DNA from: Candidatus Nomurabacteria bacterium
Lineage (GTDB): Bacteria > Patescibacteriota > Dojkabacteria > SC72 > JAHDCA01
Reading direction: 5' to 3'
Length of the DNA stretch: 64,000 bases
NCBI GenBank assembly: GCA_020632395.1
Contig: JACKFQ010000001.1
Location: 226,009 to 290,008 of the forward strand
Shown piece after piece: positions 28,407-53,603 of this stretch. A program made the translations under genes and the position numbers. Each line of letters starts with the position of its first letter. Within the stretch, counting starts at the first letter, position 1. The notes beneath the pieces are model-generated. The model had not been told where the DNA came from. It saw only the letters and a program-made list of their open reading frames with translations, and made no database searches.

Positions 28407-29603
28407 ATGCCCAAAACAATAAAGAAAAAAAATCAGAAAGCTAAAGCCCATTCCCCAAATCGCACACTAGTAACCTTCTTTTTCTTGATGCTTATTTTTG
28501 GAGCTATCATGATCTTTGATGCAAGTGTATATCAAGCTGATCAGCCACCATTCAATGACCCGTACCATTTTCTCAAACTTCATCTGTTCTTTCTAATTGT
28601 GGCAAGTCTACCAGCTACATTTATCTATTTGGTTGATTACAGAAAATTAACAAAATTTATCGTTCCTGTGTTTCTTCTCTCAATTTTCTTGTTATTTGTT
28701 GTTCTTTTTGCCCAGGACGTCAATGGCTCAAAGCGCTGGTTAAGATTAGGCTCAGATTATTTAGTGATCCAACCAGCTGAGATTATGAAACCTGTTTTCA
28801 TAATGTATCTTTCTACATGGTTGATAAAGGAACGAAAGAAATTCGACACCTTTTCCGAGGCTTTAAGAGTTGGGTTTGTTCAGAAATTGATAGGTTTTAT
28901 CGCAACTCTTAGTTTAGTGCTATTTCTGATCTTATTAGAACCAGATCTTGGAACTACACTGATCATTGGCTTCACAGCATTAGCGATCTTTCTTGCATCG
29001 GGTACTGATGTCGCTCATCTGGTAGGTTCTGCTGGTATCGCGGCAGTCATGGGTTTGATCGCGATCATCGCTGCCGTGATAGCACCATACCGCCTCAGCA
29101 GGGTACAAACATACCTCAAACTACTATTCTCAGGCGAAGTGATCGACCCACAAGGTGCTGGTTATCAGATACAGCAGATATTAATAGGTATCGGATCAGC
29201 CGGATTTTGGGGGAAAGGCTTTGGACAATCACGTCAACGTTTTGGTTACTTAGTTGAGAATACCGCGTTTACAGATTCAATATTTGCTGTCATATTAGAA
29301 GAACTGGGAATGTTTGGAGGGATCTTGTTCGTTGTGGCATGGATGATATTTCTGACAGCAGGATTACGAGTCGCACGGCAAGCACCTGATAGAGTAGGGA
29401 GGCTTATGGCAACAGGTCTAACTGTATGGCTATCAGCACAAGCTTTCTTTAATATGGGCGCAAATGTCGGATTGATACCTCTAACTGGTATACCACTACC
29501 ATTCTTTACATATGGAGGATCAAGTACAATAGCTGCCATATGCGGATTCGCTCTATTGCTTAATATCAGTAGATTTACAATCATTGAACAGAAAAAGACT
29601 TAA
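28407..29603 (+). CDS. ftsW: SEDS-family peptidoglycan glycosyltransferase FtsW/RodA
   Basis: ~10 TM protein; GSKRWLRLG and QPAE motifs; adjacent to murG. Confidence 0.85.
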   Translation: MPKTIKKKNQKAKAHSPNRTLVTFFFLMLIFGAIMIFDASVYQADQPPFNDPYHFLKLHLFFLIVASLPATFIYLVDYRKLTKFIVPVFLLSIFLLFVVLFAQDVNGSKRWLRLGSDYLVIQPAEIMKPVFIMYLSTWLIKERKKFDTFSEALRVGFVQKLIGFIATLSLVLFLILLEPDLGTTLIIGFTALAIFLASGTDVAHLVGSAGIAAVMGLIAIIAAVIAPYRLSRVQTYLKLLFSGEVIDPQGAGYQIQQILIGIGSAGFWGKGFGQSRQRFGYLVENTAFTDSIFAVILEELGMFGGILFVVAWMIFLTAGLRVARQAPDRVGRLMATGLTVWLSAQAFFNMGANVGLIPLTGIPLPFFTYGGSSTIAAICGFALLLNISRFTIIEQKKT

Positions 29604-30792
29604 AGAAAAGATCTTGTTCACAGGAGGAGGATCTGGGGGACATGTTTCTGCTGCTACAGCCATCATTAGTGGTATACGATCACAGTATGAAATGAACTTA
29701 GACCAGATCCTATATATCGGCAGTGATCTCACAATGGAGGGTGAAAGTGATGGTAAAACCAAAGGTAAAAGCCACGAAGAGAAGATTCTGTCGACAACAG
29801 ATATCCCATATAGATCTATAAGGGCAGGAAAACTACAAAGATATCTGTCTTTTCGCTCATTCAAACTACTTTTCGGTATATTGGGCGGTTTTATTGACTC
29901 ATGGAAAGTAATTTCGGAATTTCAACCAGATAGGGTGGTCTCCACGGGAGGTTATGTGACTGTTCCTATATGTATAGTCGCAAAGATCCGTGGCATACCT
30001 GTATATATACATGAACAAACCGCTGTGGTTGGTTTGACCAATAAGATCGTTGGGAAATTTGCAAAAAGAATATACATTTCATTTATCTCATCTGCATCAT
30101 TTTTCCCAAGAGAGAGAACTCTACATACAGGTAATGCTGTTAGACCAGAGATATTCAACACAACGGGAGAGGGTCCTGCACAGCAAGCGATCAGAAAAAT
30201 GTTACCTAACTCCAAAAAATACCCAATAGTTCTAATAGCAGGTGGTGGACAGGGTTCTCATCTGCTAAATATCACTGTCAGACAGATGCTTACCTATTTA
30301 ACTGAGGAATTTCAAGTAGTTCTCCAAACAGGAGACAACCAGGTTCATAAAGATCATGAGATCCTTTGGAAAGATCGCTTAAAGTTACCTGCTGATAAAC
30401 AGGATCGGTTTTTTCCAGTTAAGTTCATTACTGCTGAAGAAATTGGTAATGTGTTTTCGAATACAAATATATTTGTAGGTAGGAGTGGCGCAAATTTCAC
30501 CTACGAAATGGGTGTCCTCCAAATTCCCTCCATATTGATACCAATTCCTTGGGTGACACACAACGAACAGATGAGGAACGCACAAGCACTTGAAGAAACA
30601 GGTCTTGCAAGGATCATTCCCGAGGGCGAATTAACAGCTGAAAGGTTGTTCAATGAGCTACGAAGGCTCAGTTCTATCATAAACAAAGGCACACTAAAGA
30701 TCGATGAAGAAAAATTACACACCTCATTTCCTATAAATGCTGTATCAACGATCATAAATGACCTTACCCTGAATTCAGAACCAGTTTTATGA
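29584..30792 (+). CDS. murG: UDP-GlcNAc:lipid I GlcNAc transferase MurG
   Basis: N-terminal FTGGGSGGHVSAA (G-loop) and the C-terminal GT28 domain. Confidence 0.85.
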   Translation: MNRKRLKEKILFTGGGSGGHVSAATAIISGIRSQYEMNLDQILYIGSDLTMEGESDGKTKGKSHEEKILSTTDIPYRSIRAGKLQRYLSFRSFKLLFGILGGFIDSWKVISEFQPDRVVSTGGYVTVPICIVAKIRGIPVYIHEQTAVVGLTNKIVGKFAKRIYISFISSASFFPRERTLHTGNAVRPEIFNTTGEGPAQQAIRKMLPNSKKYPIVLIAGGGQGSHLLNITVRQMLTYLTEEFQVVLQTGDNQVHKDHEILWKDRLKLPADKQDRFFPVKFITAEEIGNVFSNTNIFVGRSGANFTYEMGVLQIPSILIPIPWVTHNEQMRNAQALEETGLARIIPEGELTAERLFNELRRLSSIINKGTLKIDEEKLHTSFPINAVSTIINDLTLNSEPVL

Positions 30793-30870: not shown

Positions 30871-33468
30871 ATGGTTTGTCAAAACTGTGGCTTAAGACCG
30901 GCAACAACTCAAATAACAACATCTCGTAATGGACAGGAGCAAACTATCCAATTGTGCTCTGCTTGTGCTTCGCAACTCCAGAGGGGTGGGATGTACGAGG
31001 GTTTCTTTGGGGACGGATCCTCTCCTGACAGATCTACAGGTGAACAGGTTGATATAACGCAATTCTTCTCCGAACGTGCAAAAGATGCAATACAATTAGC
31101 AGCAAATGAGGCTATCGAAAATGGGAATCGAAATATTGATACTGAGCATCTACTTCTAGCGATAATCCAGAGTGATGAGGTTGTAGGAAGGATCCTAAAG
31201 GAATTGAAGGTGGACAAAGGAATGCTCATGGACCAACTGAGATCACAATTTTCTATGGGTGAAGGCTCAACAACACCAGGACTCTCACCACGTGCAAAAC
31301 AAGCCCTTCAATATGCTTTTTCAGAAGCAATGGAATTAGGACATAACTATGTTGGTGGAGAACATATCTTTCTAGGTTTACTGAAAGAGGGTGAAGGTTT
31401 AGCTGCACAGATACTTACCAAATCAGGTATCGAGCATGTGACAGCCAGACAAGCAGTGCTCAAGATCGTTGGAGAAGGTGACGTGGAGGGGAAGAAAGCA
31501 GCTGAAAAGAGTGAAACTCCGACTTTGGATAAATTCAGTCGAGATCTTACACAATTGGCTAGGATCGGAAAGATCGATCCGGTGATCGGTCGCAGTGATG
31601 AGATCACAAGAGTAATTCAGATCCTTTCTCGCAGAAAAAAGAACAATCCAGTACTTATCGGAGAGCCGGGTGTAGGAAAAACTGCAATTGCAGAAGGTCT
31701 TGCCTATCGCATCTCAAAAGGCAATGTGCCAGAGATCCTTAAAGATCGTACTATCAAGGAATTGGATGTAGCATCTCTTGTAGCTGGTTCAAAATTCAGA
31801 GGAGAATTTGAAGAAAGAGCCAAAAAAATAATTGAAGAATTAAATGCCTCCGCCAGATCCATAATCTTATTCATAGATGAATTGCATACTATCGTAGGAT
31901 CAGGGGCACAAGAAGGTCAGATGGATCTATCAAACATGCTCAAACCCGCGTTGGCCCGTGGAGAGTTGCAGGTCATAGGAGCAACTACTTTAAATGAGTA
32001 CAAGAAATATATCGAAAAAGATGCTGCCCTAGAAAGACGTTTCCAACCAGTCCTCGTAAACGAACCAAGTATCGAACAAACAATTGAGATACTTAGGGGA
32101 TTGAGAGATAAGTATGAAGCGCATCACAAAGTAAAGATCGAACCCGAAGCTTTGGATTCTGCCGCAAACCTTTCATCCAGATACATCAAAGATCGTTTTC
32201 TTCCTGACAAAGCGATCGATCTGGTAGATGAAGCTGCAAGCAAGGTTAGACTCACAACATCAACAGAGCCTGAGGAACTTCGCGAGCTGAAAGACGAGAT
32301 AGAAAAAATGGAGAAGGAGCGTGAGTCTTTAAGTCGAGCTAATAAACATGAGGAAAGTGCGAAAGTAAAGATGCAGATCGAACAGGTCAGATCAGATAAA
32401 CTACAACCTCTTCTAGAAGAGTGGAATAAAGTAAAAGGCACGGGTACACCAAATGTCACTTCAGATGACATAATTACAGTAGTAGCTGCAATGACAGGAA
32501 TACCGCTTAATCAACTCCAAGAAGAGGAGAGAGATCGACTGATAAATCTAGAAGATGTACTTCACAAACGAGTTGTCGGCCAAGAAGATGCAGTCAAAGC
32601 TGTATCAGAAGCTGTCCGCAGAGCTAGGGTGGGTCTGAAAGATCCAAATAAACCCATAGCTACTTTTCTATTCCTAGGACCAACTGGGGTCGGAAAGACG
32701 CTACTGGCAAAAACCCTCGCAGAACAGATATTCGGCGATGAAGATGCGATAGTCCGTATAGATATGAGTGAATATATGGAAAAACATGCAGTTTCGAGAA
32801 TGATCGGTTCGCCTCCAGGATATGTCGGTTATGAAGAGGGTGGGCAGTTGACAGAAGCCGTTAGGAGAAAGCCTTTTTCTGTAATACTCCTTGATGAGAT
32901 AGAGAAAGCTCATCCTGATATCTTCAACACACTACTTCAACTTTTTGATGAAGGAAGGCTTACAGATTCTAAAGGTAGGACTGTAGATTTCAAGAATACA
33001 ATTATCATAGCAACTAGCAATCTAGGATCGGAAAAGATCATGGCATATATGGAATTACAAACAAAAGAGAAAAGCTGGGAATCACTCAAAGAACAGCTTA
33101 TGGAGGATCTTAAGAAAGCTTTCAAACCAGAATTCTTGAACAGACTAGACGACATCATACTATTCAAGAGTCTCGAACGAACACAACTGATAAATATAGT
33201 TAAGATCCTTTTAGAAGAGACAAAACAATTGATGAATGCACAAGATGTGGATATAGAGTTCGATGATACTATAGTGGATCATATCATCGAGCTAGGATAC
33301 GAGCCTGAGTTTGGTGCAAGACCACTAAAGAGAGTGATACAAAAGGAGATAGAAAATACCCTTGCCAACAAACTCTTAAATGGAGATCTTTCACCAGGTG
33401 AAAAGTATATCTTGAAGTACCGAGACACGAAGATCGTGATCACACAAAAGAAAAGCCAAAAGAAATGA
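30871..33468 (+). CDS. clpC: ClpC-type Clp/Hsp100 ATPase (two AAA+ modules, Clp_N repeats) with an extra N-terminal C4 zinc ribbon
   Basis: Two Walker A motifs ([18 protein letters not shown]), Clp_N repeats, short middle domain. N-terminal CQNCG...CSAC. Confidence 0.9.
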
Positions 33469-33563
33469 CCTCATCATTCAGCAACATAAAGTAAGTGAAA
33501 ACCTGAAAAAGCAGGTTACTTTGCAACTCCTTGATCGGAGAGAGATGTTGTTAGGTTGATTTA

Positions 33564-33740
33564 CTATTTCTCGGCAATGACGAGATTGACCTCAATGCCC
33601 TCATCACTTATGCGAGATATCTCTAATTCACTTCCACAAAAAGGACATTCGATGATATCTCCTACCTGATATTCCCTTGTTGTATCAAGGTCTATATCAT
33701 TCATACATTCTGGGCACGTTACTGTCTTTTTACCATCCAT
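33564..33740 (-). CDS. LysW/ArgW-like zinc-ribbon mini-protein (amino-group carrier protein family) lacking the canonical C-terminal EDWGE tail
   Basis: 58 aa, translated manually: MDGKKTVTCPECMNDIDLDTTREYQVGDIIECPFCGSELEISRISDEGIEVNLVIAEK. TCPEC...hh.ECPxCGxELEI mirrors LysW. Confidence 0.5.
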   Translation of the reverse strand: MDGKKTVTCPECMNDIDLDTTREYQVGDIIECPFCGSELEISRISDEGIEVNLVIAEK

Positions 33741-33818
33741 TCTGTAATCCTACTAATTTATGTAGAATAGTAATGTATTATATCATGTAGAAGGACTTGA
33801 ACTCATATTTTTTTAGAG

Positions 33819-34730
33819 ATGGGAGATATTATGAAAACCTACACTCCAATTACACGAATATTCATCGACGAGTTACCAGTAGTTATCAAACGTGAGGATC
33901 TTAATGAAACTGGATCACAAAAAGATCGTGGAGTACCAGTGCAGATCGATCATCACATCAAAGATGGCAAAACCCGATTTGTTATATCAAGTTCAGGAAA
34001 TTCTGCTATCAGTGCGATCAACAGATTAATAAATACAGAGTATCACCTCACAGTCTTCTTGAGTAAAAATATCAGCACATCTAAACTACTGCGGATCTCC
34101 TTAATATTAAAGAAAAACATTACACAAGAAGATACTACTATCCAAAATATCGAACTGAAGTTCACTGAAAGACCCGTATCTGATGCATTCAAATATGCTA
34201 ATTCATCTGAGAGCGTTTTACTTAGAGGCTCTATAGATCCTTATGCAACGATAGGGTACCAAGCGATCACACATGAACTAGCAGAACAAAGTCCCGGATC
34301 AACAGATATATTCATACCCACTTCTAGTGGTACAACTTTGGTAGGAATATTCAACGGTTATGAAGACTTAAAGGATAAAGACCCAAATATTTTGATCCCG
34401 AGATTTCATGTGTGCCAAACAACAGCCGTCAACACGATTGCCAGAGATTTTGATACCTCATTTCAACCTACCAAAAATTCAATTGCAGAAAGCATTGTCG
34501 ATAGGGTGGCTAAACGATATCACCAAGTCAGTGATATAATAAAGAGTACTACAGGTTCTGGATGGGTCTTAACAGATGCTGAGATCAGGAAAGCTGTGCA
34601 ACTCCAAAAAGATCTTGGTTTAGAATTATCTAATGAATCAGCACTAGCACTTGCAGGGATGTTAAGAGCAATGCGAAGCTCAAAATATAATATGGATCAA
34701 CCAATAGTATTATCAACAGGAGTGAAATGA
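33819..34730 (+). CDS. fold-type II PLP-dependent enzyme (Trp-synthase beta / threonine synthase / cysteine synthase superfamily)
   Basis: KREDLNETGSQKDRG matches the PLP-lysine motif (..NPTGSFKDRG) of this superfamily. The stop overlaps the next gene's start (ATGA). Confidence 0.65.
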   Translation: MGDIMKTYTPITRIFIDELPVVIKREDLNETGSQKDRGVPVQIDHHIKDGKTRFVISSSGNSAISAINRLINTEYHLTVFLSKNISTSKLLRISLILKKNITQEDTTIQNIELKFTERPVSDAFKYANSSESVLLRGSIDPYATIGYQAITHELAEQSPGSTDIFIPTSSGTTLVGIFNGYEDLKDKDPNILIPRFHVCQTTAVNTIARDFDTSFQPTKNSIAESIVDRVAKRYHQVSDIIKSTTGSGWVLTDAEIRKAVQLQKDLGLELSNESALALAGMLRAMRSSKYNMDQPIVLSTGVK

Positions 34731-36145
34731 GTTTATACGACCCAATCTTTTATATAACTAATGATAGCGAACGAGCCATCGGACTCGAGGAGATTGTAGA
34801 TCTTCATATACTGGCCATAGACGACAGTTGGCTTGCACGTCAGATACACAACAAGACCCACAAGGTATTTATCCTTGAGCGAGAGATAGGTATTCTTAAT
34901 CCTATTTTCCGAAATTCCAATAAACTACTTCAAGAACCACTCACACAAGAGTATATTGATCATCATTCGCAAGATATCCGTCAAGGAATGGTGTTTAAGA
35001 TCGCTCCTAATATTGAAAGAACTGCACAAGCGCTAGGTATACAACTCCTCAATACAACCTCACAACAGAATCAACGTTTCGAAAACAAGATCCCACAACT
35101 AGAATTCCTCAAAGAATTAGACAATATCCCACTACCCAAAAGTGAGATCTATCTCTTGGGAGATACTGATCACCAGAAGCTAATTTCTGAATTCTCGGAT
35201 CCTTACGTCATACAGTTCGATCGAGGACATACAGGGACAGGAACATTATTTATCAGATCTGAAGATGAGCTTGAAGACCTGAAGAGTGCGTTCCCCAAGC
35301 GACCAGTAAGGATATCCCAATACATAGAAGGCGAAGCCTGGACACTCAATGCTGTTTCTACAAGATGGGGGACTCATTACGGTGGTTTATCGTATCAGAT
35401 AACAGGGGTCGAGCCACTCACAAGAGTCTCAGGGGCAACTGTCGGAAACGATTGGAGTAGAGCGCATTCTCTTCCAGATAATACGATCTCCCAGATTGCA
35501 ATGATCACTAAAAAGGTTGGTGACGGGTTATTTGAAGAAGGGTTTAGAGGTTTATTCGGATTGGACCTGATAGTTGACGACAAAGGGAAAGCATTTCTGA
35601 TAGAGATAAATGCACGACAGCCAGCCTCTACAGGGATGCACACCAAACTTATGTTAAAAAACCAACAGATACCGTTGCAACTATTACATATCGCTGAATT
35701 CTTAGGTTTGACCGATAGTGAGCTGATTCAGTATATGACCGATCGATCAAGACCAGCTCATAGCCTAACCAAACTACAAGACCAGCTAAGCGAGCAGGAC
35801 CGATCACTTGGTAGGGATATAAATGCGTCACAGTGTATATTGAGAAATAGTGCAAGTGGAAATATTACTATAGCAGGAGATCTAGGCTCAGGGATCTACG
35901 ATCGAACAGATAGAGATTTATCTGAACAGGCAATTGATGATCGATATAGTATCGATCACTTGGATGAAGACGAGTTCCTCCTCATAACTGCTACTGAAGG
36001 AAGGATCGTCACACCTGGTACCGAGTACGCTCGGATCCAAACGTATGGAAGTGTCCTAGATAACAGTGGTAAACTCTTACCAGTACTAGTAGATATTATC
36101 AATAAGTTAAAAGGGAGTACCCATGAGGAGGCTACAACTACCTGA
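34727..36145 (+). CDS. ATP-grasp superfamily ligase
   Basis: Central ATP-grasp core with LFGLDLIVDDKGKAFLIEINARQPAS (E-x-N metal site) and a glycine-rich loop FDRGHTGTGTLF. Overlaps both neighbours. Confidence 0.6.
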   Translation: MSLYDPIFYITNDSERAIGLEEIVDLHILAIDDSWLARQIHNKTHKVFILEREIGILNPIFRNSNKLLQEPLTQEYIDHHSQDIRQGMVFKIAPNIERTAQALGIQLLNTTSQQNQRFENKIPQLEFLKELDNIPLPKSEIYLLGDTDHQKLISEFSDPYVIQFDRGHTGTGTLFIRSEDELEDLKSAFPKRPVRISQYIEGEAWTLNAVSTRWGTHYGGLSYQITGVEPLTRVSGATVGNDWSRAHSLPDNTISQIAMITKKVGDGLFEEGFRGLFGLDLIVDDKGKAFLIEINARQPASTGMHTKLMLKNQQIPLQLLHIAEFLGLTDSELIQYMTDRSRPAHSLTKLQDQLSEQDRSLGRDINASQCILRNSASGNITIAGDLGSGIYDRTDRDLSEQAIDDRYSIDHLDEDEFLLITATEGRIVTPGTEYARIQTYGSVLDNSGKLLPVLVDIINKLKGSTHEEATTT

Positions 36146-36902
36146 ACCGGCTTGGAAAGTCGTACAAGGTTATATGAAGCTAAAATTTAACGGTACAGTT
36201 GTTCGAACTCCTTACTATCGAAATGTCGAGAGGGTACGTGCAGAACTTCGCTCACTTATTGGTAAAGGTACTCCTGAAGAGATTGTCGAAGATGTCCTTA
36301 TCTTTTCAAAATTGAGGGGCTTCAATCTCCGTCGAGCAACACCTGACGAGATACGACGCTTCATGGAGAAAGAAGGTATCGGTATAGATTGTTCGGGATT
36401 TGTAGCACATGTGTATGACGGATGGCTTAGGGCTGTAAATAAAGGAAGTATAAGATCAAATCTTCTCTGGCCAAAACGCACTCTTTACAGAAAGGTTATA
36501 ACCATCCTAAGACCTATCGAGAACATCAGCTCAGAACTTCTCACAGGAGAATTGAATTGTACCACTATCGAGATCGAAGACACCCTCCCTGGCGATCTGA
36601 TAAGATTGAAGGGTGCTAAACAGGGTGATCATGTTGTACTGATAAGTACGGTCACACTTGAGGAAGACGGTACTCCCAGAGAGATCGATTATGTACACTC
36701 ATCACCACACTATGGTAATGATAATGGTGTAAAGAAAGGAAAGATCAGGATCACAAATCCCGATAGGGGATTAGAGTATCAGGAATGGTTGGAAAAAGAC
36801 CCCAATGGCCGCTGCATCACAAAAGACGGTTATCTAAGGGAACTTAGCGATAATAGGTTGGTTCGGCCTAATTTTATGGAAAAGATCAAATGGGGACAGT
36901 AA
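36123..36902 (+). CDS. cytoplasmic NlpC/P60 (CHAP-like papain-fold) cysteine amidase/peptidase
   Basis: GIDCSGFVAHVY (catalytic Cys), downstream GDHVVLI and HSSPH (His pair); no signal peptide. Confidence 0.55.
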   Translation: MRRLQLPEPAWKVVQGYMKLKFNGTVVRTPYYRNVERVRAELRSLIGKGTPEEIVEDVLIFSKLRGFNLRRATPDEIRRFMEKEGIGIDCSGFVAHVYDGWLRAVNKGSIRSNLLWPKRTLYRKVITILRPIENISSELLTGELNCTTIEIEDTLPGDLIRLKGAKQGDHVVLISTVTLEEDGTPREIDYVHSSPHYGNDNGVKKGKIRITNPDRGLEYQEWLEKDPNGRCITKDGYLRELSDNRLVRPNFMEKIKWGQ

Positions 36903-37981
36903 CCGGATGGATCTTACTATCTTTCTTGCTCACATTCGGATTAGCACCGATCATCATACATATCCTCTATCGATACAGGATCGTACGAAAAACTGATACT
37001 GATTTCTCGGCGATAGTAGGAGAACGATATCTTAAAGCAGGTACACCGATCATGGGAGGTCTGATGATGATCATCAGCATCTTGTTACTTACTATCATAT
37101 TCAATTGGCATGGGAGCACAGTAGTACCGATAGTTGTACTAATAATTTCAGCATTGTTAGGTGGATTTGATGATGTGATGAATATCTACGGTAGGAAGAG
37201 AGTTATCAGAACTGTAGATAAGCAGATCAAATTAGCGAAAGTACACAAACATCTTTCCAAAAGGATCTTTTATTGGATCACACTGCCTTGGGCTGCATAT
37301 AAGAATATCTGGTTTGCACTAGGGTCATACCCAGGAAATGGTATACACGCTGGTGAAAAGATCCTTATACAATTATTTGTGGGTTGCTTAGTTGCTTGGT
37401 GGATATTTTTCAGATTAGGATGGAGCGTTCTTTGGATCCCTGTCATTGGAGAATTTGATATAGGCATACTAATGCCTTTGGTAGTAATCGGTCTCGTGAT
37501 GATCATGACAAATGCAGTCAATATCTCCGATGGTATGGATGGCTTAGCCAGTGGAATGTTGGTACCTAGTTTTATAGCCTATCTCCTCATCGCAATACAG
37601 CAGGAACAGCACGAGATAGCGATCCTTTGCGCAATTACGATAGGAGCCTTACTCGCCTATATATACTTCAACATCAAACCAGCACGAGTTGAGATGGGCG
37701 ATGTCGGAACTCTAGCTTTAGGAGCTTTGCTTGCAACGGTAGCTCTTGCCCTTAGACGAGAATTCTTACTTCCGATAATTGGTGGGCTGTTCTTCATAGA
37801 GATCGGCTCCTCATTATTGCAGGGAGTGTATCGCAAGATCGTCGGAAGAAGGCTTTTAAAGATGGCACCACTGCACTTACACTTGCAGGTACGAGGATGG
37901 TCAGAAGAAAAGACTGTGATGAGATTTTGGTTGTTCTCAGTGATATTTGCGATTTTAGGTCTCTGGATCTCACAATTCTAA
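36890..37981 (+). CDS. MraY/WecA-family polyprenyl-phosphate sugar-1-phosphate transferase (paralog; degenerate HHH motif)
   Basis: 10-11 TM protein; NAVNISDGMDGLASG (DDxxD-type motif), C-terminal MAPLHLHLQVRGW. Confidence 0.7.
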   Translation: MGTVTGWILLSFLLTFGLAPIIIHILYRYRIVRKTDTDFSAIVGERYLKAGTPIMGGLMMIISILLLTIIFNWHGSTVVPIVVLIISALLGGFDDVMNIYGRKRVIRTVDKQIKLAKVHKHLSKRIFYWITLPWAAYKNIWFALGSYPGNGIHAGEKILIQLFVGCLVAWWIFFRLGWSVLWIPVIGEFDIGILMPLVVIGLVMIMTNAVNISDGMDGLASGMLVPSFIAYLLIAIQQEQHEIAILCAITIGALLAYIYFNIKPARVEMGDVGTLALGALLATVALALRREFLLPIIGGLFFIEIGSSLLQGVYRKIVGRRLLKMAPLHLHLQVRGWSEEKTVMRFWLFSVIFAILGLWISQF

Positions 37982-38061
37982 ATGACTCACACTGCTTACT
38001 AGTCGAACTAAGCCAACAAAGTTCTGTCTGTTATAAGAGCTATCTTATCAGAGATTTTTGA

Positions 38062-39081
38062 TCAATAACCGTTCTTCTTGCACTCCAGATACTCATACGC
38101 TCGAGTTGCATAAGCAAGTGGACTCAGAATTAGATCATGTGCGTGGATCATTTTTGTTTCTATCCCACCAAAACCTCTTTTAAATAGTGAGAGGCCATAC
38201 CAAGGATGATCAACATCCTCAGGATCTACAACTCCCCAGAGATTGAGCTCTTTGAATCCGAGTGCTCGTGAATTTCTTATAGCCTCCCAGATCAATAGGT
38301 ATGTTGATGGGATATTGCGAAATTCTGTCAATGATCCACTATGATGATAAAAAGATTTTTCATTATAATGTGTAAAGATAGCGGCTGATATATATCGATC
38401 TTGGTACTTGCTTAAATACATTGTTGCCATATCGTTCTTTGCAAATACTTCGAATTCCCTGCGCACATATTCTTTCTTGTATGCTATCCATTTATTTCTC
38501 TCTACCGCATCAAGAAAGATCTTCCAAAACTCCTCAAATTTGCTCATATCTGTAAATTTTTCAACAGTTATCCCCATCTTCTGAGCCTTCTTTATATAGT
38601 ATCTAGTGTTCTTCCTCATCTGCTTCAATATTTCGTCTTCCGATGGAAACAGATCTATTGAAAGAGTATGCTCAGCATCAGTCTCATGCGAAGTAGAACG
38701 CACTAGTCCTAATTTTTTCATTCGTCCAAGCTCGCGTGAGGAATTTTCAACCAAAGGACTCATTCTTACAAACCATGATTTCTCCTTCTTCCCAATTTCT
38801 CGCAACGATCGCATCAAGAAATTAACCAGATCATCATCCTCCCAATCACATAAAGGAGAATGTCGTAGATGAAGATACTTACCTCGGACAGCCTTGATCA
38901 TGGATATAGGTAACCCCGCCACTAATACACCATCCCGATAGATCCCATAATATCTAAAATCGTTACCGATCTCATTCTGGAACTCTCCCCACAACCAAGA
39001 ATCAATAAAGGTAACCTTAGGGAAGCCTCGGGCGAATTTATCCCATTTCTTTGAGTCTGTGATTGTTCTTAATTCATACAT
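38062..39081 (-). CDS. FemAB-family (aminoacyl-tRNA-dependent peptidoglycan interpeptide) transferase-like protein
   Basis: Size and tandem GNAT-like pattern of FemX/FemAB; W/F/Y-rich C-terminal region. Confidence 0.5.
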   Translation of the reverse strand: MYELRTITDSKKWDKFARGFPKVTFIDSWLWGEFQNEIGNDFRYYGIYRDGVLVAGLPISMIKAVRGKYLHLRHSPLCDWEDDDLVNFLMRSLREIGKKEKSWFVRMSPLVENSSRELGRMKKLGLVRSTSHETDAEHTLSIDLFPSEDEILKQMRKNTRYYIKKAQKMGITVEKFTDMSKFEEFWKIFLDAVERNKWIAYKKEYVRREFEVFAKNDMATMYLSKYQDRYISAAIFTHYNEKSFYHHSGSLTEFRNIPSTYLLIWEAIRNSRALGFKELNLWGVVDPEDVDHPWYGLSLFKRGFGGIETKMIHAHDLILSPLAYATRAYEYLECKKNGY

Positions 39082-40312
39082 GCGAATTATAGTAATTAGT
39101 TAATTCTAAAATGATCCTATCGGCATCTGAGGGTGAGATATTAGCATGCAAGGGTAGGTTGATAATATCCCTACACAGATCCTCAGCATTCGGACACGAC
39201 CCTTCATCATACATCGTGATATATGGAGAGAAAGTTGCAGGAGCTACCGGATTCCAATACCAATCCCCAAGAAGAATATTTTGTTCTTTCATATACTTCA
39301 TCAAACCCGTTCTATCTTTGACACGAAGAGCCATTCGCAAAGGTACCACATCTGGATTTTCTTCAACAATAGTGATATTTCGGTCTTCACCCAATGCTTT
39401 GATGAACTTCTGAAACAGCAAAGCTCGATATGACTGTATCTCTGAGATATCTTCTAGTTGACCCATTGCGATCTCGGCTAGAGCCCCTGGAAGTTTTGTT
39501 GGTATATGCTTCGGTCTCTCACCCTGTTTCTCTTCTTTAGTCGTTGCCCTCGAGATCAACCCACTTTTTGTATAGATCAGATGAAGAACTTTTCCAAAGC
39601 CAGAAACATACGTTGATTTTATAGTTCTCCATAGTATCGGGAAAAGTATCCTCTTGAACACCCAGCTAGAACCAGGGTAGTGAAGTGAAAGATATCTTGT
39701 ATTTAGTGTTGATGCAACATCCAGTTCAGGATCAAATACCATCACACCCCCGTCAACACCAGAAACTACTTTATCTCTTCCGAGGCTATATATGATCACA
39801 TCAGTTTCTGGTAATACCTCACTATTTGATGTGGGTATAAAATGGGTCGAATCTAGGATAAGTAGTATGCCTCTCTGCTTGCAGATCTCCCTCACTTTCT
39901 CATAGCTAGGTACACTCCCAAGAGTCACCTGGACTACAACAGCTACTGTTTGTGGGTCGATCCCAGCGATGATAGTATCCTCAGCTGGGACCAATTTACC
40001 TTTTTGGATATCTATATATCTGGGTGTCAATCCTGCCCATACGGCAGGTAATGACGCTGCAGCACAAGTAAATCCTTGATATACGACATTTCCATTTGGT
40101 TTACTTATGCTACTGAGTAGTTCGAATAAAGCTGATCTAGCATGACTATATGTCAAAACTGTCTTTCCAGGATGTAATTTCAAGAAGTGATCATTGACAC
40201 GAGATATCGATCCAGTATCAAACCATCGTCTAGGGGATAGTAGTAGACGATAGTTCAAGTTTAGATCTTTCGGACGGGTATTTGGAGAATATGAGCTATA
40301 TATCAATTTCAT
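39074..40312 (-). CDS. DegT/DnrJ/EryC1/StrS-family PLP aminotransferase-like protein
   Basis: Fold pattern of sugar aminotransferases (..VIIYSLGRDKVVSGVDGGVMVF..) with a Lys in the expected Schiff-base region. Confidence 0.45.
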   Translation of the reverse strand: MKLIYSSYSPNTRPKDLNLNYRLLLSPRRWFDTGSISRVNDHFLKLHPGKTVLTYSHARSALFELLSSISKPNGNVVYQGFTCAAASLPAVWAGLTPRYIDIQKGKLVPAEDTIIAGIDPQTVAVVVQVTLGSVPSYEKVREICKQRGILLILDSTHFIPTSNSEVLPETDVIIYSLGRDKVVSGVDGGVMVFDPELDVASTLNTRYLSLHYPGSSWVFKRILFPILWRTIKSTYVSGFGKVLHLIYTKSGLISRATTKEEKQGERPKHIPTKLPGALAEIAMGQLEDISEIQSYRALLFQKFIKALGEDRNITIVEENPDVVPLRMALRVKDRTGLMKYMKEQNILLGDWYWNPVAPATFSPYITMYDEGSCPNAEDLCRDIINLPLHANISPSDADRIILELTNYYNSHV

Positions 40313-41733
40313 TTTCTACAATGATGAGATAAATCCTGCATAACTTTGGGTGAGAAACGACCTTCCAACAAGAAAACATCTTTTTCTGTACCACTACAGA
40401 TCTTTTCGTGTACACTTTTTTCATCTACAAGTTCTGAGATCTCATCCCCTGCGATTTTGTGAAGTACAGGATCAGTTGTGATCAGATGAATATTTAATTC
40501 TCGTAGAACACTTACTATACGTTCATACGATGTTTCCAAAGTATCACCTAATTCTAACAATCCCCTTGTAATTGCGGTTCTATTCGTCTGGGAGAATTCA
40601 GAGATATAATGCAAGGCCGCAATAAATCCTTCCACGCTAGAATTATAGCTGTCATCTATCAGGATCGAACCATTATCCAATTCTCTACGAGAAAGCTTCT
40701 GTGATATTGGCTTTAGATGTTTTAATGCTTCTACTATCTGCTTCTCATCCAAGCCCAGATCGATCGCACATGCTAAAGCACCTGTTAGATTAAGAATACT
40801 ATGGTTTCCGGGAAGAACTGTGTTCAAGGATAGATTTAGATTCTTGTATGCAAAGTGGAATGAACCGTTTCCTGTCGGTTGTGAATAAGCATCTGCCTTG
40901 GGATTTGTGATCGAATAAGTGATAACAGTACAGTGAGCAGCTTTGGTCATGACCTCGTAACCGTCGCAATCCATGTTCAAATACAGTTTTCCATCCTTTG
41001 GTAGAGCAGAAGGGAGTTCAGATTTAGCTTTCAATAATGCCTCACGAGATCCAAAAATATCTACATGCTGATTTCCGAGACCAGTGACAAATCCTATCCT
41101 TGGTGGAGTGATGTTTGCTGATCGCGTGATCGTTCCAACGGTATATGCTGCCATCTCACTTATAAAATACTGTGTGTCTGGACGGATCTCGTTGAGAAAT
41201 GACATAGCTACACCAACTTCCGAGTTGTAATTCTTTTTGGTCGATGCCACCTTATATTTTTCTGACAGTAGCCGGTGAAGGATGACCTTCATAGAGCTTT
41301 TCCCATATGAACCAGTAACTCCTATCACAACGGCGTCAGAATCTTTTGCCATCTGCTCGGCTCGTTTGATGATCCTACCTCTTTTATATAGTGCAAGAGG
41401 CTCTGTCAGCAACACACCCAAAAACACCACAACCTTAGATGCCAGAAAACCTAAACCCCAAAATAGTGTATAAGAAAGATCTATCTCCTGAAATCTCAAA
41501 GCCGTCCACCCAAAATAAGCAACCATGATCAAAAAAACAAATCCTGTTATCAGAATATTACGCAAAGATCTTGCAGGCATTTTGAGCGGGATCCAAAACC
41601 CTCGATTATCTTTAATTCCGCTCAGTATTCTAGGTAAAAAATACTCCTTGATCTGAAATTGATAGAGAGTGGGTAGAGAAAAGAATGTAGACACGATCAA
41701 ACCTATTAGTGAGAAGAAGATTGTCATGATCAA
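40309..41733 (-). CDS. murF: Mur ligase, MurF-like, with N-terminal multi-TM membrane anchor
   Basis: VIGVTGSYGKSS P-loop and Mur ligase middle/C domains, preceded by ~110 aa containing 3-4 TM helices. Confidence 0.7.
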   Translation of the reverse strand: MIMTIFFSLIGLIVSTFFSLPTLYQFQIKEYFLPRILSGIKDNRGFWIPLKMPARSLRNILITGFVFLIMVAYFGWTALRFQEIDLSYTLFWGLGFLASKVVVFLGVLLTEPLALYKRGRIIKRAEQMAKDSDAVVIGVTGSYGKSSMKVILHRLLSEKYKVASTKKNYNSEVGVAMSFLNEIRPDTQYFISEMAAYTVGTITRSANITPPRIGFVTGLGNQHVDIFGSREALLKAKSELPSALPKDGKLYLNMDCDGYEVMTKAAHCTVITYSITNPKADAYSQPTGNGSFHFAYKNLNLSLNTVLPGNHSILNLTGALACAIDLGLDEKQIVEALKHLKPISQKLSRRELDNGSILIDDSYNSSVEGFIAALHYISEFSQTNRTAITRGLLELGDTLETSYERIVSVLRELNIHLITTDPVLHKIAGDEISELVDEKSVHEKICSGTEKDVFLLEGRFSPKVMQDLSHHCRK

Positions 41734-42579: not shown

Positions 42580-43875
42580 TTGAACTATAACAACGTGAAC
42601 AGAATCAAACAGATGATCCCTCAGAACATTAAGAATTATTACCATAAGGTCATGATAAGGCTTTACAACATCTACTATGATGACCCATCATCCAAACTCG
42701 CAGTGATCGGTGTTACCGGAACTGATGGTAAAACGACGACTTGTACATTGATCTACGAGATCCTAAAAGGAGCTGGATACAAAGTAGGTTTGATCACAAC
42801 CATCAGCGCTAGGATCGGTGAAGAATCAATACCCACCGGCTTTCATGTGACCACTCCAGATCCCCAAGTACTTCTCAACCTCATGAAAAGGATGATAGAT
42901 GCTGGAATGGAGTATGTAGTCCTAGAAACCACATCACATGGACTTGATCAAAATCGTGTTAGTACGATCAAGTTTCATGCAGGGATCTTCACTAACGTAA
43001 CACATGAACATCTAGACTATCACAAAACATATGAGGCTTACCTCAATACGAAAGCCACACTTATTCATCTGATCAAACCGGGTGGATTCGTGGTGATCAA
43101 TCTGGATGACAAATCAAGCGAGGTCTTATGTAAGAAAGCTTCTGATCATAAATTAAAAACCTATACATACGGCTTCACTGAAAAAGCAGATCTGTTCGCA
43201 ACTGATTATGAAGATACCACCACAACTACAAAATTTAATGTTCATAATGGGGATCAAACGTTTCCTGTCGAAATGCATCTACCCGGAGAATACAATGTCT
43301 ACAATGCTCTTGGTGCTATACAGGTTGGTCTTGAACTCGGTATATCCCAAGATGTTGTTGCAAGAGCACTGTCAGATGTTAAGACTCTAGAGGGGAGATG
43401 GGAAGTATTGCAAAAGGAGCCATACAAAGTGGTTGTAGACTTCGCACATACACCAAATGCCTTAGAAAAGATGTTAGAGTACGCACGACAGGATAATCCC
43501 ACAGGAAGATTAATTGTTGTTTTTGGTACTGCAGGTAAGCGTGATATTGAGAAGAGACCTCAGATGGGAAGGATCGCAGGGAATCTAGCCGATCTCGTGA
43601 TCCTAACCGCAGAGGACCCAAGAGGAGAAAATATTATCAATATAAACAGACAGATCGCTGTTGGTCTTGCAGAAGTAGGTAAGATAGAGGAGAAAGATTA
43701 TTTCAGCATAACTGATAGACGTAAAGCAATTGCTCGAGCTATGAAACTTGCTAAACCCGGTGACACAGTAGTGATCACAGGAAAAGGACACGAGAAGAGT
43801 ATGAATATCGATGGTGTTAACGAGATCCCTTGGAGTGACCAGATGGTTGTAAAAGAATTAATTACAAACGGATGA
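42580..43875 (+). CDS. murE: Mur ligase, MurE-like (UDP-MurNAc-L-Ala-D-Glu:diamino acid ligase)
   Basis: VIGVTGTDGKTTT P-loop. C-terminal domain has EDPRGE in place of the DAP-specific DNPR motif. Confidence 0.7.
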   Translation: MNYNNVNRIKQMIPQNIKNYYHKVMIRLYNIYYDDPSSKLAVIGVTGTDGKTTTCTLIYEILKGAGYKVGLITTISARIGEESIPTGFHVTTPDPQVLLNLMKRMIDAGMEYVVLETTSHGLDQNRVSTIKFHAGIFTNVTHEHLDYHKTYEAYLNTKATLIHLIKPGGFVVINLDDKSSEVLCKKASDHKLKTYTYGFTEKADLFATDYEDTTTTTKFNVHNGDQTFPVEMHLPGEYNVYNALGAIQVGLELGISQDVVARALSDVKTLEGRWEVLQKEPYKVVVDFAHTPNALEKMLEYARQDNPTGRLIVVFGTAGKRDIEKRPQMGRIAGNLADLVILTAEDPRGENIININRQIAVGLAEVGKIEEKDYFSITDRRKAIARAMKLAKPGDTVVITGKGHEKSMNIDGVNEIPWSDQMVVKELITNG

Positions 43876-43881
43876 GAACAA

Positions 43882-44640
43882 ATGAAGTACATATTTTCAG
43901 AATTCACCGCTACTTATAGCCAATACGAATTTCCTTATCAGATCTATGTATTTAGAGAGGAAAGTGACAAATTAGAGGATATATATTCAAAAGGAGCACT
44001 TCCTACGCGTATTGACGCCAGGTTGTTCTATGTAGCCCGAGGTGTACGAGTAGATCTTACAAAATTCTCCCCAAATAGTGAAAATCGCAGAATTGCCAGA
44101 AAGACATCCAACTTGCAACTCAAGATTGTTCCTCTCGATATGTTCGATTATCAACCACATATCGGTAAGTTAGCAAAAGACTTTTACGATACAAAATTCG
44201 GAAAAGGTACTCTCTCCGCTCAAAAGGTAAAATGGCTCTTTCGATCTGGTGCATACTCCCATGTGATAGTCTATAAGGATATCCAACAGAACAGTATCAT
44301 TGGGTACTGTATAGTAAATCTCACGGATAACATAATGCATTATGCATATCCTTTCTATCGATTAGAACTTATCAATACAAATACAGGCATAGGTATGATG
44401 ACAAGTGCCATTATGAATGCTTCAGGAAGTGATCTTGATCTTGTATATCTTGGGACATGCTATGACCAGAGAGCTAAATATAAACTACAGTTCAAAGGTA
44501 TAGAATACTTTAATGGGTGGGAGTGGTCTGAGGATATCGATGCTTTAAAGTCATTACTAAATTCCAAACATGATTCTCATCTATTATCGACACCAGGTAA
44601 ACGTACCAATTTAATTGAACATCTGACAGGAACGCCATGA
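43882..44640 (+). CDS. Bpt/ATE_C-like (arginyl/leucyl-tRNA-protein transferase C-domain, GNAT-fold) protein
   Basis: ...SIIGYCIVNLTDNIMHYAYPFY...VYLGTCYDQRAKYKLQFKGIEYFNGWEW resembles the ATE_C signature YLGYwI...M.YK..F.P.E.l..W. Confidence 0.4.
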   Translation: MKYIFSEFTATYSQYEFPYQIYVFREESDKLEDIYSKGALPTRIDARLFYVARGVRVDLTKFSPNSENRRIARKTSNLQLKIVPLDMFDYQPHIGKLAKDFYDTKFGKGTLSAQKVKWLFRSGAYSHVIVYKDIQQNSIIGYCIVNLTDNIMHYAYPFYRLELINTNTGIGMMTSAIMNASGSDLDLVYLGTCYDQRAKYKLQFKGIEYFNGWEWSEDIDALKSLLNSKHDSHLLSTPGKRTNLIEHLTGTP

Positions 44641-46061
44641 AAAAAGTACATTTTATCGGCATTGTAGCTTCTGCTATAGCTCCTATCGCAATTATGATGA
44701 AGGAGAAAGGCTGGGATGTGACTGGTTCAGACGAAGGTGTCTTCGAACCGGCTCTATCTCTACTCAATAATGCAGGAGTGAAGTGGTATGAAGGATACTC
44801 AGCAGAAAGGGTACATGGATGCGACCTGGTGATAATTGGAGGAGGACCATTGATGAAAGACCCTAATAATCCAGAATATCTTGAAGCCCTCCGATTAGGC
44901 TTGCCTACGAAAGGGTACTACTACGCCCTACAGGAATACGTTATCAAAGACAGATCGATTGTCATCGCTGGAAGCTACGGTAAAACAACAACATCTGGAA
45001 TGGTCAATTGGATACTTGAATGTGCTGGGATGAACCCTTCTTTCATGATAGGTGGCAAACCAGGAAATTTCACAACAGGAGTACGCAGTACAGATTCTGA
45101 TATCTCATGTTTAGAGGGTGACGAGTTTGTCTCGGTATTCAACATGGATATGGAACCAAGATTTATCTATTACAAACCCAAATATACCTTGGTTAGTGCA
45201 TCAAAGTGGGATCATATGAATGTGTACCCTACGGAAAAGTCATACACAGATGCATTTCTCAAGTTGGTCAAGCTGACTAAGCAGAACGATGGAGTACTAT
45301 ATCTTTGTGGCTCAGGTACGAATAACGATCTGCTAGAGAGATCTGCAAGTGTGATAGACCTTAGAGTTGTGACATATATGATAGACGGAAAAGAAGCTTT
45401 ACTCGAACAAGACCCTGAATACAGGGCAAAAATATCAGATGTTAGTATTAAAGGAACTACGTTTGAGGTATATCATAAGGCATTATCACTTGGGGAATTC
45501 ACAACAACACAGATTGGCACACACAATGTCGAGAACTCTCTTGGGGCAATAACAGTTTGTCATGATCTAGGGGTACCACTAGAAAAGATCAAAGAGGGTA
45601 TCAAGAGTTTTAAGGGAATTAAGCGAAGATTGGAGATTATTGGTAATAATTCAAAAGGTGCATTAGTAATAGATGATTTTGCTCACTCAGCTATGAAAGC
45701 TGAGGCGTCGCTTAGTGCATTACGTCAAAGTTATCCTGATTCGAAGATAGTCACAGTATACTTCCCTAGGCAATCTGCTAGAGAGAACAGAGAAGAACTA
45801 GATTTTTATCCTGGTGCTTTTGATGCAGCCGATCTTGTGATCATCCCACGCATACAAGTGAAACGTTCAACACCTAAAGAGCAACGGATATATGGGAAGG
45901 ACATTATCGAGGCGATCGCTCATACGCAACCAAATGTCGAGTACATTCCAGTAGAGGAAGATCTTGTTAGTAGATTGGTCAACGAATCCTCCGATAACAC
46001 AGTAATTGTATTCATGTCGGCTAGTGGGTGGGGTAGGGTGATTGATGAGGTGTTGAGGTAA
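44637..46061 (+). CDS. murC: Mur ligase, MurC/Mpl-like (UDP-MurNAc:L-Ala ligase)
   Basis: N-terminal HFIGIVASAIAPIAIMMKEKGWDVTGSD Rossmann region and GSYGKTTTSGMV P-loop. Confidence 0.7.
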   Translation: MKKVHFIGIVASAIAPIAIMMKEKGWDVTGSDEGVFEPALSLLNNAGVKWYEGYSAERVHGCDLVIIGGGPLMKDPNNPEYLEALRLGLPTKGYYYALQEYVIKDRSIVIAGSYGKTTTSGMVNWILECAGMNPSFMIGGKPGNFTTGVRSTDSDISCLEGDEFVSVFNMDMEPRFIYYKPKYTLVSASKWDHMNVYPTEKSYTDAFLKLVKLTKQNDGVLYLCGSGTNNDLLERSASVIDLRVVTYMIDGKEALLEQDPEYRAKISDVSIKGTTFEVYHKALSLGEFTTTQIGTHNVENSLGAITVCHDLGVPLEKIKEGIKSFKGIKRRLEIIGNNSKGALVIDDFAHSAMKAEASLSALRQSYPDSKIVTVYFPRQSARENREELDFYPGAFDAADLVIIPRIQVKRSTPKEQRIYGKDIIEAIAHTQPNVEYIPVEEDLVSRLVNESSDNTVIVFMSASGWGRVIDEVLR

Positions 46062-47598: not shown

Positions 47599-47650
47599 AA
47601 ACACCTCGGAGGTTCATTCCGGTGAGCCTCTGGGGTGTTTACTTTTTCTC
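47599..47650. terminator. bidirectional intrinsic terminator between convergent MFS gene and murB
   Basis: AAACACCTCGGAGG...CCTCTGGGGTGTTT imperfect hairpin with T-runs on both strands. Confidence 0.5.
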
Positions 47651-48788: not shown

Positions 48789-48855
48789 TTATCGGATAAC
48801 TAATATTTGTAGCAATACTGATCGTACAACGTGGGTGTACTTTCAAAAAGTAGGG

Positions 48856-49003
48856 CTTCACAGACCGAGCTTCACAGACCGAGCTTCACAGACCGAGCTT
48901 CACAGACCGAGCTTCACAGACCGAGCTTCACAGACCGAGCTTCACAGACCGAGCTTCACAGACCGAGCTTCTCAGACCGAGCTTCTCAGACCGAGCTTCT
49001 CAT
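48856..49003. repeat. 14-bp tandem repeat array, ~10.5 copies (8x cttcacagaccgag, 2x cttctcagaccgag, 1 partial)
   Basis: Read directly; lies in the divergent murB/murA intergenic region; no unique spacers. Confidence 0.9.
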
Positions 49004-53128: not shown

Positions 53129-53150
53129 TTCGAATCCCATTATTATCCAA

Positions 53151-53585: not shown

Positions 53586-53603
53586 CCCATATCCACTGCC
53601 AAT

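Follow-up and report, generated by a model that had tools for sequence, protein, structure and literature searches.

The 64,000-nucleotide stretch of Candidatus Nomurabacteria bacterium DNA analysed here, called the window below (contig JACKFQ010000001.1, forward-strand positions 226,009 to 290,008), carries two genes of the MraY family: copy A, an open reading frame (ORF) at 36890-37981 on the plus strand that starts with ATG and encodes 363 amino acids (aa), and copy B, a plus-strand ORF at 50563-51591 that encodes 342 aa. An initial annotation, made from the sequence alone, had reported these two polyprenyl-phosphate transferase ORFs and their loop motifs, and comparison of the proteins of the 64-kb window bore this out, with copies A and B the only ORFs of the PNPT/MraY family. 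The annotation took copy B, with MAPLHHHFQ (nucleotides [nt] 51469-51495), for the true MraY and supposed that copy A, with MAPLHLHLQ, probably transfers a different sugar phosphate in the manner of WecA or TagO, or else a modified muramyl-peptide. Apparently these roles are reversed. Copy A is probably a working lipid I synthase (MraY) of a distinct, insertion-bearing subfamily, its "degenerate" HHH motif reflecting a substitution that is specific to the lineage and tolerated, since the position is absent from the lists of essential residues. It would act as a UDP-MurNAc-peptide:polyprenyl-phosphate phospho-MurNAc-peptide transferase, making lipid I. Copy B is, on our best reading, the unusual paralog, and its predicted activity is uncertain. 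Present annotation does not distinguish the two, naming both genes "phospho-N-acetylmuramoyl-pentapeptide-transferase" or "hypothetical protein".

Both copies matched Pfam PF00953 (Glycos_transf_4), copy A at 94.3 bits and copy B at 30.7 bits, the latter barely clearing the threshold of 27 bits. TIGR00445, the NCBIfam equivalog model for MraY, gave 169.8 bits (E = 1e-49) for copy A versus 116 bits for copy B, both under the trusted cutoff of 192 bits. With E. coli MraY, fetched from NC_000913 and aligned to both copies (copy B was also aligned to 5jnq and 4j72), the scores were 123 bits for copy A and 66 bits for copy B, and the E. coli MraY structure 8tlu matched copy A at E = 1.6e-34. The WecA model TIGR02380, with a cutoff of 326, gave 33.9 bits for copy A and 26.5 bits for copy B; E. 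coli WecA itself scored 24 bits against copy A and had no match to copy B at E <= 1. Neither copy reached the equivalog level of NF053644, the archaeal pseudomurein MraY-like model (124 bits for A and 63.5 bits for B; cutoff 450). AlphaFold2 (AF2) models were obtained with a mean local confidence (pLDDT) of 90.3 and a predicted template-modelling score (pTM) of 0.88 for copy A, and with 85.9 and 0.86 for copy B. The predicted structure of copy A has the ten-transmembrane-helix MraY fold. All its best Foldseek matches were MraY (E = 1e-15, template-modelling score [TM] 0.76/0.84), with human GPT found only at E of about 1e-6, nine orders weaker; the copy B model matched MraY at 2e-12 (TM about 0.78) and GPT at about 1e-5. 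Because MraY models and structures rank copy A over copy B, and far over WecA and GPT, we read copy A as a genuine MraY.

The active site of copy A agrees with this assignment. Aligned to E. coli MraY, copy A shows the motifs GFDDV, NAVNISDGMDGL (residues 208-219) and MGDVGT, with D94, D95, N208, N211, D214, D217, D271, H329 and H331 corresponding to E. coli D115, D116, N189, N192, D195, D198, D267, H325 and H327, respectively. The DDD motif (D94, D95, D271) is complete, as it is in 120/120 of the best 120 homolog clusters, and the NxxNxxDGxDG motif of the uridine or uridine-adjacent pocket is present. Every catalytic position of family A is kept in 118-120 of those 120 clusters, and the full catalytic set occurs in 88/88 insertion-bearing A-type genes, the number found over all loci examined.

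The altered motif lies in loop E, where MAPLHLHLQ occupies residues 325-333 (nt 37862-37888) and Leu330 stands at the middle His (E. coli H326, Aquifex H325), with H329 and H331 retained. The essential catalytic residues of MraY have been listed as Aquifex D117, D118, D265 and H324 (PMC11117252); the three aspartates are described as critical, D265 being a Mg2+ ligand (PMC6606608). Aquifex H325 is a loop-E contact for nucleoside inhibitors, on their peptide side, and is not among the listed essentials (PMC6606608, PMC11117252). Muraymycin and tunicamycin are among the drugs that it touches. In the best 120 family A clusters the middle position holds L in 63, H in 49, Y in 7 and F in 1, and the first His is invariant (120/120); with Leu in 63 of the 120 closest clusters, the H-to-L change is no sequencing quirk. 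Across the 88 A-type genes loop E reads HHH in 70, HYH in 10 and HLH in 7. The combination of H-to-L with a change of E to Q, L, S or N three residues on is confined to the window's subclade. MraYs resembling those of the candidate phyla radiation (CPR) that lack the insertion and lie in dcw-type clusters (loci L013 and L014) read H-L-F or H-L-Y and have the full catalytic set. The H-to-L change touches only the middle His of loop E, and would be lineage-specific in one Dojkabacteria subclade and no marker of a new reaction.

Copy A also carries an insertion, about 50 aa long, which follows the DD motif in cytoplasmic loop B (nt 37181-37339, residues about 98-150). The segment is a gap against E. 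coli MraY, is present in 88/88 A-type ORFs, and was confidently modelled by AF2 as two helices (residues 109-118 and 122-143). A literature search found no published description of an insertion-bearing MraY subfamily. By the names of its best matches, the organism of the window belongs to Candidatus Dojkabacteria (WS6, Patescibacteria). The subfamily spans Dojkabacteria and at least one more distant lineage, itself presumably Patescibacteria. A tree was built by neighbour joining only, from 158 sequences and 316 trimmed columns, with E. coli WecA as root and 200 bootstraps. In it copy A clusters with other insertion-bearing sequences, within the MraY radiation. Copies A and B were sisters in 0/200 replicates, and their 33% identity is confined to the C-terminal 153 residues. 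They are thus not the recent duplicates that the initial annotation had named as a refuting outcome, and we read them as ancient, non-sister MraY copies. The same annotation had called them functionally non-equivalent paralogs, and the differences between their active-site residues agree with that.

Copy A would be transcribed at the end of an operon of overlapping genes, PALP / ATP-grasp / NlpC-P60-like / mraY. The junctions overlap by 4 nt (PALP/ATP-grasp), 23 nt (ATP-grasp/NlpC-like) and 13 nt (NlpC-like/MraY-A, ATGGGGACAGTAA). The coupling of copy A to a PLP (pyridoxal phosphate)/ATP-grasp/NlpC cassette, noticed in the initial annotation, extends well past the window, as the cassette-MraY-A linkage is conserved over about 50 independent loci. 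A metagenome scan with the family A alignment returned 80 loci, in most of which the order is murB(-), ATP-grasp, NlpC-like, MraY-A, ATE-like, murC, LysW-like(-), PALP, where (-) marks the minus strand. In most of the 80 loci the ATP-grasp gene immediately precedes NlpC-like/MraY-A. MraY-A, ATE-like and MurC follow one another in at least 40 loci, and the ATE-like gene is directly downstream of MraY-A in most other A-type loci. The window's clade has the block directly behind ftsW-murG, in the order ftsW-murG-(clpC)-LysW-like(-)-PALP-ATP-grasp-NlpC-like-MraY-A, followed by femAB(-), degT(-), murF(-), α/β-hydrolase(-), murE, ATE-like and murC, with degT or murF absent from some loci. In locus L019 the surroundings are rearranged, yet both the core of PALP, ATP-grasp, NlpC-like and MraY-A and the series murE, ATE-like, murC are retained.

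Nearly all neighbours of A-type genes across the 80 loci are peptidoglycan genes (murB, murC, murE, murF, femAB, ftsW, murG, penicillin-binding protein [PBP]). In L086 and L098 the A-type MraY lies behind a class-B PBP and a MurF-like ligase, and in L063 behind a MurF-like ligase; the PBP-MurF-MraY and MurF-MraY positions are the classical mraY slot. Most of the metagenome A-type loci lie well outside the window's clade, with FtsW 34-40% and MurA about 30% identical to those of the Dojkabacteria locus L022. Intact HHH is found in at least 39 cassette-adjacent A-type genes, the majority. Because the linkage is present in a distant lineage, mostly with HHH, it is ancient and independent of the H-to-L change. 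The initial annotation's view of the degenerate HHH as the sign of a new, cassette-tied specificity is not supported by these counts, nor by the H-L-Y and H-L-F loops of insertion-less CPR MraYs. The first six loci had suggested a related pattern, HLH tied to the cassette and HHH standing alone near uvrC; it was refuted by the 80-locus sample.

Copy B departs from MraY at the active site. It has GFLDV where MraY has GFxDD, YASELTDGLDGL for NxxNxxDGxDG, and YNGGPSA for FMGDxGS. The DDD motif is incomplete: D110 stays, V111 stands for E. coli D116 and G249 for E. coli D267. The NxxN pair is lost, with Y186 for N189 and E189 for N192, the DGxDG part being retained, and further changes are M265N, V268P and T73N (E. 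coli numbering). In its own numbering the site thus reads D110-V111, Y186/E189, N247-G248-G249-P250 and H307-H309, the last being the intact HHH. The claim that copy B is the bona fide MraY is not supported: it has V at D118 and G at D265 (Aquifex numbering), while copy A keeps all residues reported as essential and scores higher. In the best 120 family B clusters V116 occurs in 119/120, and Y189, E192, G267, N265, P268 and N73 occur in 120/120 each. The family retains D115, D195, D198 and N257 in 120/120 clusters, the His residues of HHH in 118-120/120, and K or R at K133 in 120/120. It also has invariant polar residues of its own (N69, T114, N115, Q127, E128, E189 and N247 in window numbering). 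The near-invariance of the substitutions across orthologs argues for a remodelled site under purifying selection, not for decay.

Copy B would descend from an ordinary CPR-type, dcw-cluster MraY in which two DDD aspartates became V and G, and NxxN became Y and E. Family B came out as monophyletic in 189/200 replicates. The wider Y189/E192 clade did so in 149/200, and it nests beside ordinary CPR MraYs, the Cerribacteria gene of L014 among them. Judged from protein representatives at 50% identity, this wider clade is small; all members lacking Asp267 have Y189 and E or D at 192 (9/9), and some members still hold the DD pair. One of the wider clade, P0250 (L107, 6010-7011), keeps DD and has Y189/E192 with Ala at 267; its gene directly follows adk-map-infA-rpsM-rpsK-rpsD-rpoA-rplQ-rplM-rpsI-rpmH, with no cell-wall cluster. 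A third MraY-like group (P0257, P0258, P0270, P0280, P0281, P0302, P0309) has E68, R73, F/Y189, G192 and Glu for Asp at 267; from the alignment we take this Glu267 to be another natural variant of the Mg2+-site residue.

In the window and its clade copy B sits between murA (49212-50507) and mraZ, the start of a plus-strand run of mraZ, rsmH, an ftsL-like gene and ftsI (class-B PBP) at 51826-55424, whose orthologs match the MraZ, Methyltransf_5, PBP_dimer and Transpeptidase Pfam families. In two other Dojkabacteria loci, L022 and L023, the order is ftsW-murG-(murB-murA)-mraZ-rsmH-ftsL-ftsI-B, with B immediately behind ftsI. At least six contigs or assemblies carry both A and B, namely the window, a JGI 174 kb contig, a 123 kb contig, a 20 kb GTDB contig, a 184 kb H6764 contig (accessions 11 apart) and assembly MCA9374xxx. 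Among the matches listed, A+B pairs were identified in the window's clade only. The A-type catalogue is incomplete, 68/79 metagenome A-types being less than 70% identical to any listed cluster, so missing A/B pairings prove nothing. A MurE-centred scan of GTDB genomes gave 14 loci with one close relative. A search of the literature on Patescibacteria and Dojkabacteria turned up no report of paired MraY genes.

Several observations weigh against copy A as the working lipid I synthase. Its score of 169.8 bits lies under the TIGR00445 cutoff of 192, a shortfall due in part to the insertion, which interrupts the match. The MraY-like copy B is maintained in the same genome under strong purifying selection and stands right behind ftsI in related Dojkabacteria, so that B could be the enzyme for housekeeping and A the specialised one. 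The change of HHHxE to HLHxQ in the window's subclade is compatible with shifted recognition of the substrate peptide, and a literature search found no experimental data for any A-type protein. A division of labour along these lines, close to the view of the initial annotation, is possible, though we lean away from it: B would be the divisome's housekeeping synthase of lipid I, with the Glu at E. coli N192 replacing Asp267 for Mg2+, and A a second translocase for a modified UDP-MurNAc-peptide made by its operon partners. It fits the position of B, which adjoins mraZ-rsmH-ftsL-ftsI in the window and comes right behind ftsI in L022 and L023, its nesting among ordinary CPR MraYs in the neighbour-joining tree, and the co-retention of A and B in at least six assemblies. 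Copy B also retains D195, D198 and N257 of the uridine pocket, an aromatic residue at 264, HHH and K133, and its own invariant polar residues are unlike what is usual for a dead enzyme. Aquifex N190 and D265 touch the same inhibitor amino group (PMC6606608), so these two positions are adjacent in space, and 9/9 wider-clade members without D267 carry Y189 and E or D at 192. On these grounds one may tentatively picture B and its Y189/E192 relatives without Asp267 as active lipid I synthases in which the Mg2+ carboxylate has moved from the Asp of transmembrane helix 8 to the NxxN Glu and the DD pair can do without its second Asp. However, the coupled loss of D267 and gain of E192 is a single evolutionary event and so gives no statistical evidence of compensation. 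We know of no MraY without the D116 and D267 equivalents that has been shown to work. These equivalents are described as critical (PMC6606608), A holds the PBP-MurF-MraY slot in a distant lineage, and the cassette linkage does not follow the HLH change.

Somewhat doubtful, in our estimate, is a non-catalytic copy B serving as a substrate- or lipid-binding scaffold, a regulator, or the partner in an A/B heterodimer that ties lipid I synthesis to the divisome, with A supplying all catalysis. Of the three DDD residues copy B keeps one, it lacks both Asn of NxxN and T75 (Aquifex numbering), its Pfam score is just over threshold (30.7 vs 27), and its predicted structure retains the MraY fold. MraY is known to work as a dimer, and the dimer assembles in a manner linked to binding of the carrier lipid (PMC9046198). 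As a weak hint that B is dispensable, the complete genome CP129478.1, whose copy A is 64% identical to that of the window, gave no B-type cluster among the best 120 B matches. On the other side, the replaced positions are invariant (V in 119/120; Y, E and G in 120/120) and the new invariant polar residues face the active site, which favours a specific chemical role over a scaffold. Each MraY protomer reportedly has its own complete active site (4J72 structure), so one would not expect the two protomers to show complementary losses. If the L022 and L023 genomes have no A-type gene, B must be active. It is, finally, very improbable that copy A is a WecA/TagO/WbpL-type transferase priming a non-peptidoglycan glycoconjugate with another sugar phosphate; a WecA/TagO-like role was one of the options in the initial annotation. 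Only the altered HHH loop, the unusual neighbours and the weak WecA matches (33.9 and 24 bits) speak for it, against the large margin by which MraY-specific models and structures win, the intact MraY-type motifs, the peptidoglycan-gene neighbours across 80 loci and the place of copy A inside the MraY radiation of the WecA-rooted tree.

If copy A is the lipid I synthase, the combination of intact HHH and dcw position is an unsafe criterion for a true MraY, since the copy that passes it has lost two catalytic aspartates. To our knowledge the DDD and HHH motifs of MraY are treated as universal. Were copy B active, the DDD motif of an essential antibiotic target, supposed to be invariant, would have been rewired in nature, with an alternative arrangement of the MraY metal site; Dojkabacteria would then run two mechanistically different MraYs, B with the divisome genes and A with a LysW-like/ATP-grasp/NlpC-P60/PLP module for an unusual part of the stem peptide. 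An inactive copy B would be a conserved MraY pseudoenzyme linked to division genes. The large, widespread insertion-bearing subfamily and its uncharacterised ATP-grasp/NlpC-P60/ATE-like/LysW-like/PLP set are a lead to new peptidoglycan precursor chemistry in the CPR.

The operon of copy A lies inside a large peptidoglycan supercluster (ftsW-murG ... femAB, murF, murE, ATE-like, murC, murB, murA). Upstream of the block are ftsW (28407-29603, +; PF01098, 5.6e-81) and murG (29584-30792, +; PF03033 and PF04101). A gene for a 58-aa LysW-like zinc-ribbon protein (33564-33740, -), whose orthologs carry PF21344 (Zn_ribbon_LysW), is divergent from the PALP gene and accompanies it in the window and 47 other loci. 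The C-terminus of the LysW-like protein has the form (V/I)(D/E)E(G/E)K, with Lys last in 47/47 orthologs, and the window's protein ends in ...AEK; the tail suggests a carrier-protein or C-terminal-tagging step that would be coupled to the neighbouring ATP-grasp ligase. The PALP gene (33819-34730, +; PF00291, 6.5e-29) encodes a fold-type-II PLP enzyme that is only distantly threonine-synthase-like, as models gave 88 bits, far under cutoff, and threonine synthase of the PDB matched at 1e-7. Next is the ATP-grasp ligase of an uncharacterised family (34727-36145, +; 472 aa), with PF02655 at 1.2e-7 and a PRK06524-like NCBIfam match of 97.6 bits; LdmS and RimK matches were weak, and the sole PDB match was 7r8p at 3e-4. 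The NlpC/P60-like cysteine hydrolase (36123-36902, +; 259 aa) matches PF00877 weakly and has no N-terminal hydrophobic segment by eye. Its C90 (in GIDCSGF), H170 and H192 are invariant across 18 orthologs and are the catalytic triad of the family; the Cys motif gave weak profile matches to LytE/Spr/MepS. Single-sequence and profile searches of solved structures gave only marginal matches for the cassette enzymes, and the ATP-grasp protein has no close characterised relative. In CP129478.1 the ATP-grasp and NlpC-like genes are fused (L026, 7782-10001; 739 aa), which by the Rosetta-stone argument suggests that ligase and cysteine hydrolase share a substrate. A consensus scan of 33400-38200 gave no excess of promoter- or terminator-like sites over shuffled sequence, and an internal transcription signal is unsupported. 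Recent horizontal acquisition of the copy A block was considered and rejected, because the GC content is uniform.

Copy A (36890-37981, +), identified by TIGR00445, alignment and AF2, is convergent with a minus-strand gene for a FemAB-family aminoacyl-tRNA-dependent peptidoglycan transferase (38062-39081; PF02388, 1e-33). On the same strand as femAB follow a DegT/DnrJ/EryC1-family aminotransferase (39074-40312; PF01041, 2.9e-26) and a MurF-like Mur ligase (40309-41733; TIGR01143, 200 bits over residues 124-421). In the latter the usual N-terminal Mur-ligase domain gives way to a hydrophobic extension, roughly 120 aa long, for which several membrane helices are predicted, and the ligase may be membrane-anchored. 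On the plus strand are MurE (42580-43875; NF001126, 415 bits, over cutoff), an ATE_C-like protein (43882-44640; PF04377, weak) between murE and murC, and a MurC-type Mur ligase with Mur_ligase N, M and C domains (44637-46061). The ATE_C-like protein resembles arginyl/leucyl-tRNA-protein transferases and may be, besides FemAB, an aminoacyl-tRNA-dependent transferase acting on a peptidoglycan precursor. Together the PLP enzyme, ATP-grasp ligase, cysteine hydrolase, Fem-like and ATE-like transferases and LysW-like protein would make or edit an unusual amino-acid part of the UDP-MurNAc-peptide, and copy A would then pass the phospho-MurNAc-peptide of that precursor to the lipid carrier. The genes murB (47649-48788, -) and murA (49212-50507, +) are named from MurB and EPSP_synthase Pfam matches at the orthologous positions. 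Their divergent intergenic region holds a near-perfect tandem repeat at 48855-48999, with a 14-nt unit in 10.4 copies (GCTTCACAGACCGA; 99% matches). In the Dojkabacteria genome CP129478.1 two adjacent murB paralogs lie downstream of murC (L026, 17783-19917). Defence- or mobile-type genes precede the cell-wall cluster in the window: at 2596-3780 an AAA_14/DUF4143 ATPase, at 4457-6133 a GmrSD-type restriction endonuclease, and on the minus strand at 10148-11227 a Fic/DOC protein. A PGA_cap gene, poly-gamma-glutamate capsule synthesis-like, lies at 17482-19176 and is followed at 19196-21682 by an 828-aa ORF without a Pfam match.

Compared with characterised MraYs (E. coli b0087, Aquifex 4J72, C. 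bolteae 5JNQ), copy A shares the fold, DDD, NxxNxxDGxDG, MGDxGS, the first and third His, Lys133, the uridine pocket and a setting among mur/fts genes, and differs in the two-helix insertion of about 50 aa, in Leu at the middle His, in Gln where HHHxE has Glu, and in Ile at Aquifex T75. Copy B shares the predicted fold, the uridine pocket and HHH, and differs by D116V, D267G, N189Y, N192E, M265N, V268P and T73N (E. coli numbering). WecA/TagO/WbpL and GPT (DPAGT1) are like both copies in belonging to the PNPT superfamily and in having DD and DGxDG motifs, but their family scores are far lower for both, and no polysaccharide, teichoic acid or O-antigen genes were found in the copy A neighbourhood. 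For the cassette, one parallel is GspS, which joins an ATP-grasp-type ligase to a papain-like amidase (CHAP / NlpC-P60 superfamily). The cassette likewise has ligase and amidase-type genes side by side, fused in CP129478.1, though with the domain order reversed and no detectable sequence similarity to GspS. A second parallel is the LysW/LysX system, in which a small LysW-type zinc-ribbon gene is likewise found beside that of an ATP-grasp ligase; true LysW ends in EDWGE, whereas the tail here, (D/E)E(G/E)K, ends in Lys, the context is peptidoglycan and not lysine or arginine synthesis, and no LysY, LysZ, LysJ or LysK homologs are present. Both GspS (glutathionylspermidine synthetase) and LysX, the alpha-aminoadipate-LysW ligase, belong to the ATP-grasp superfamily (PMC3249071), members of which also attach D-Asp or D-Glu side chains to peptidoglycan precursors (PMC2655667, PMC3249071). 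In Enterococcus faecium the ATP-grasp D-aspartate ligase Aslfm and the racemase Racfm decorate UDP-MurNAc-pentapeptide upstream of MraY; pairing a cytoplasmic ligase with an enzyme that converts an amino acid is thus an established route for attaching a side-chain residue to the precursor (PMC2655667; PMC3249071). No specific relationship of the cassette to Aslfm/Racfm was detectable by sequence, its PLP enzyme is threonine-synthase-like and not an Asp racemase, and it adds an NlpC/P60-like hydrolase and a LysW-like protein, but it follows the same logic, with a PLP enzyme and an ATP-grasp ligase beside mraY.

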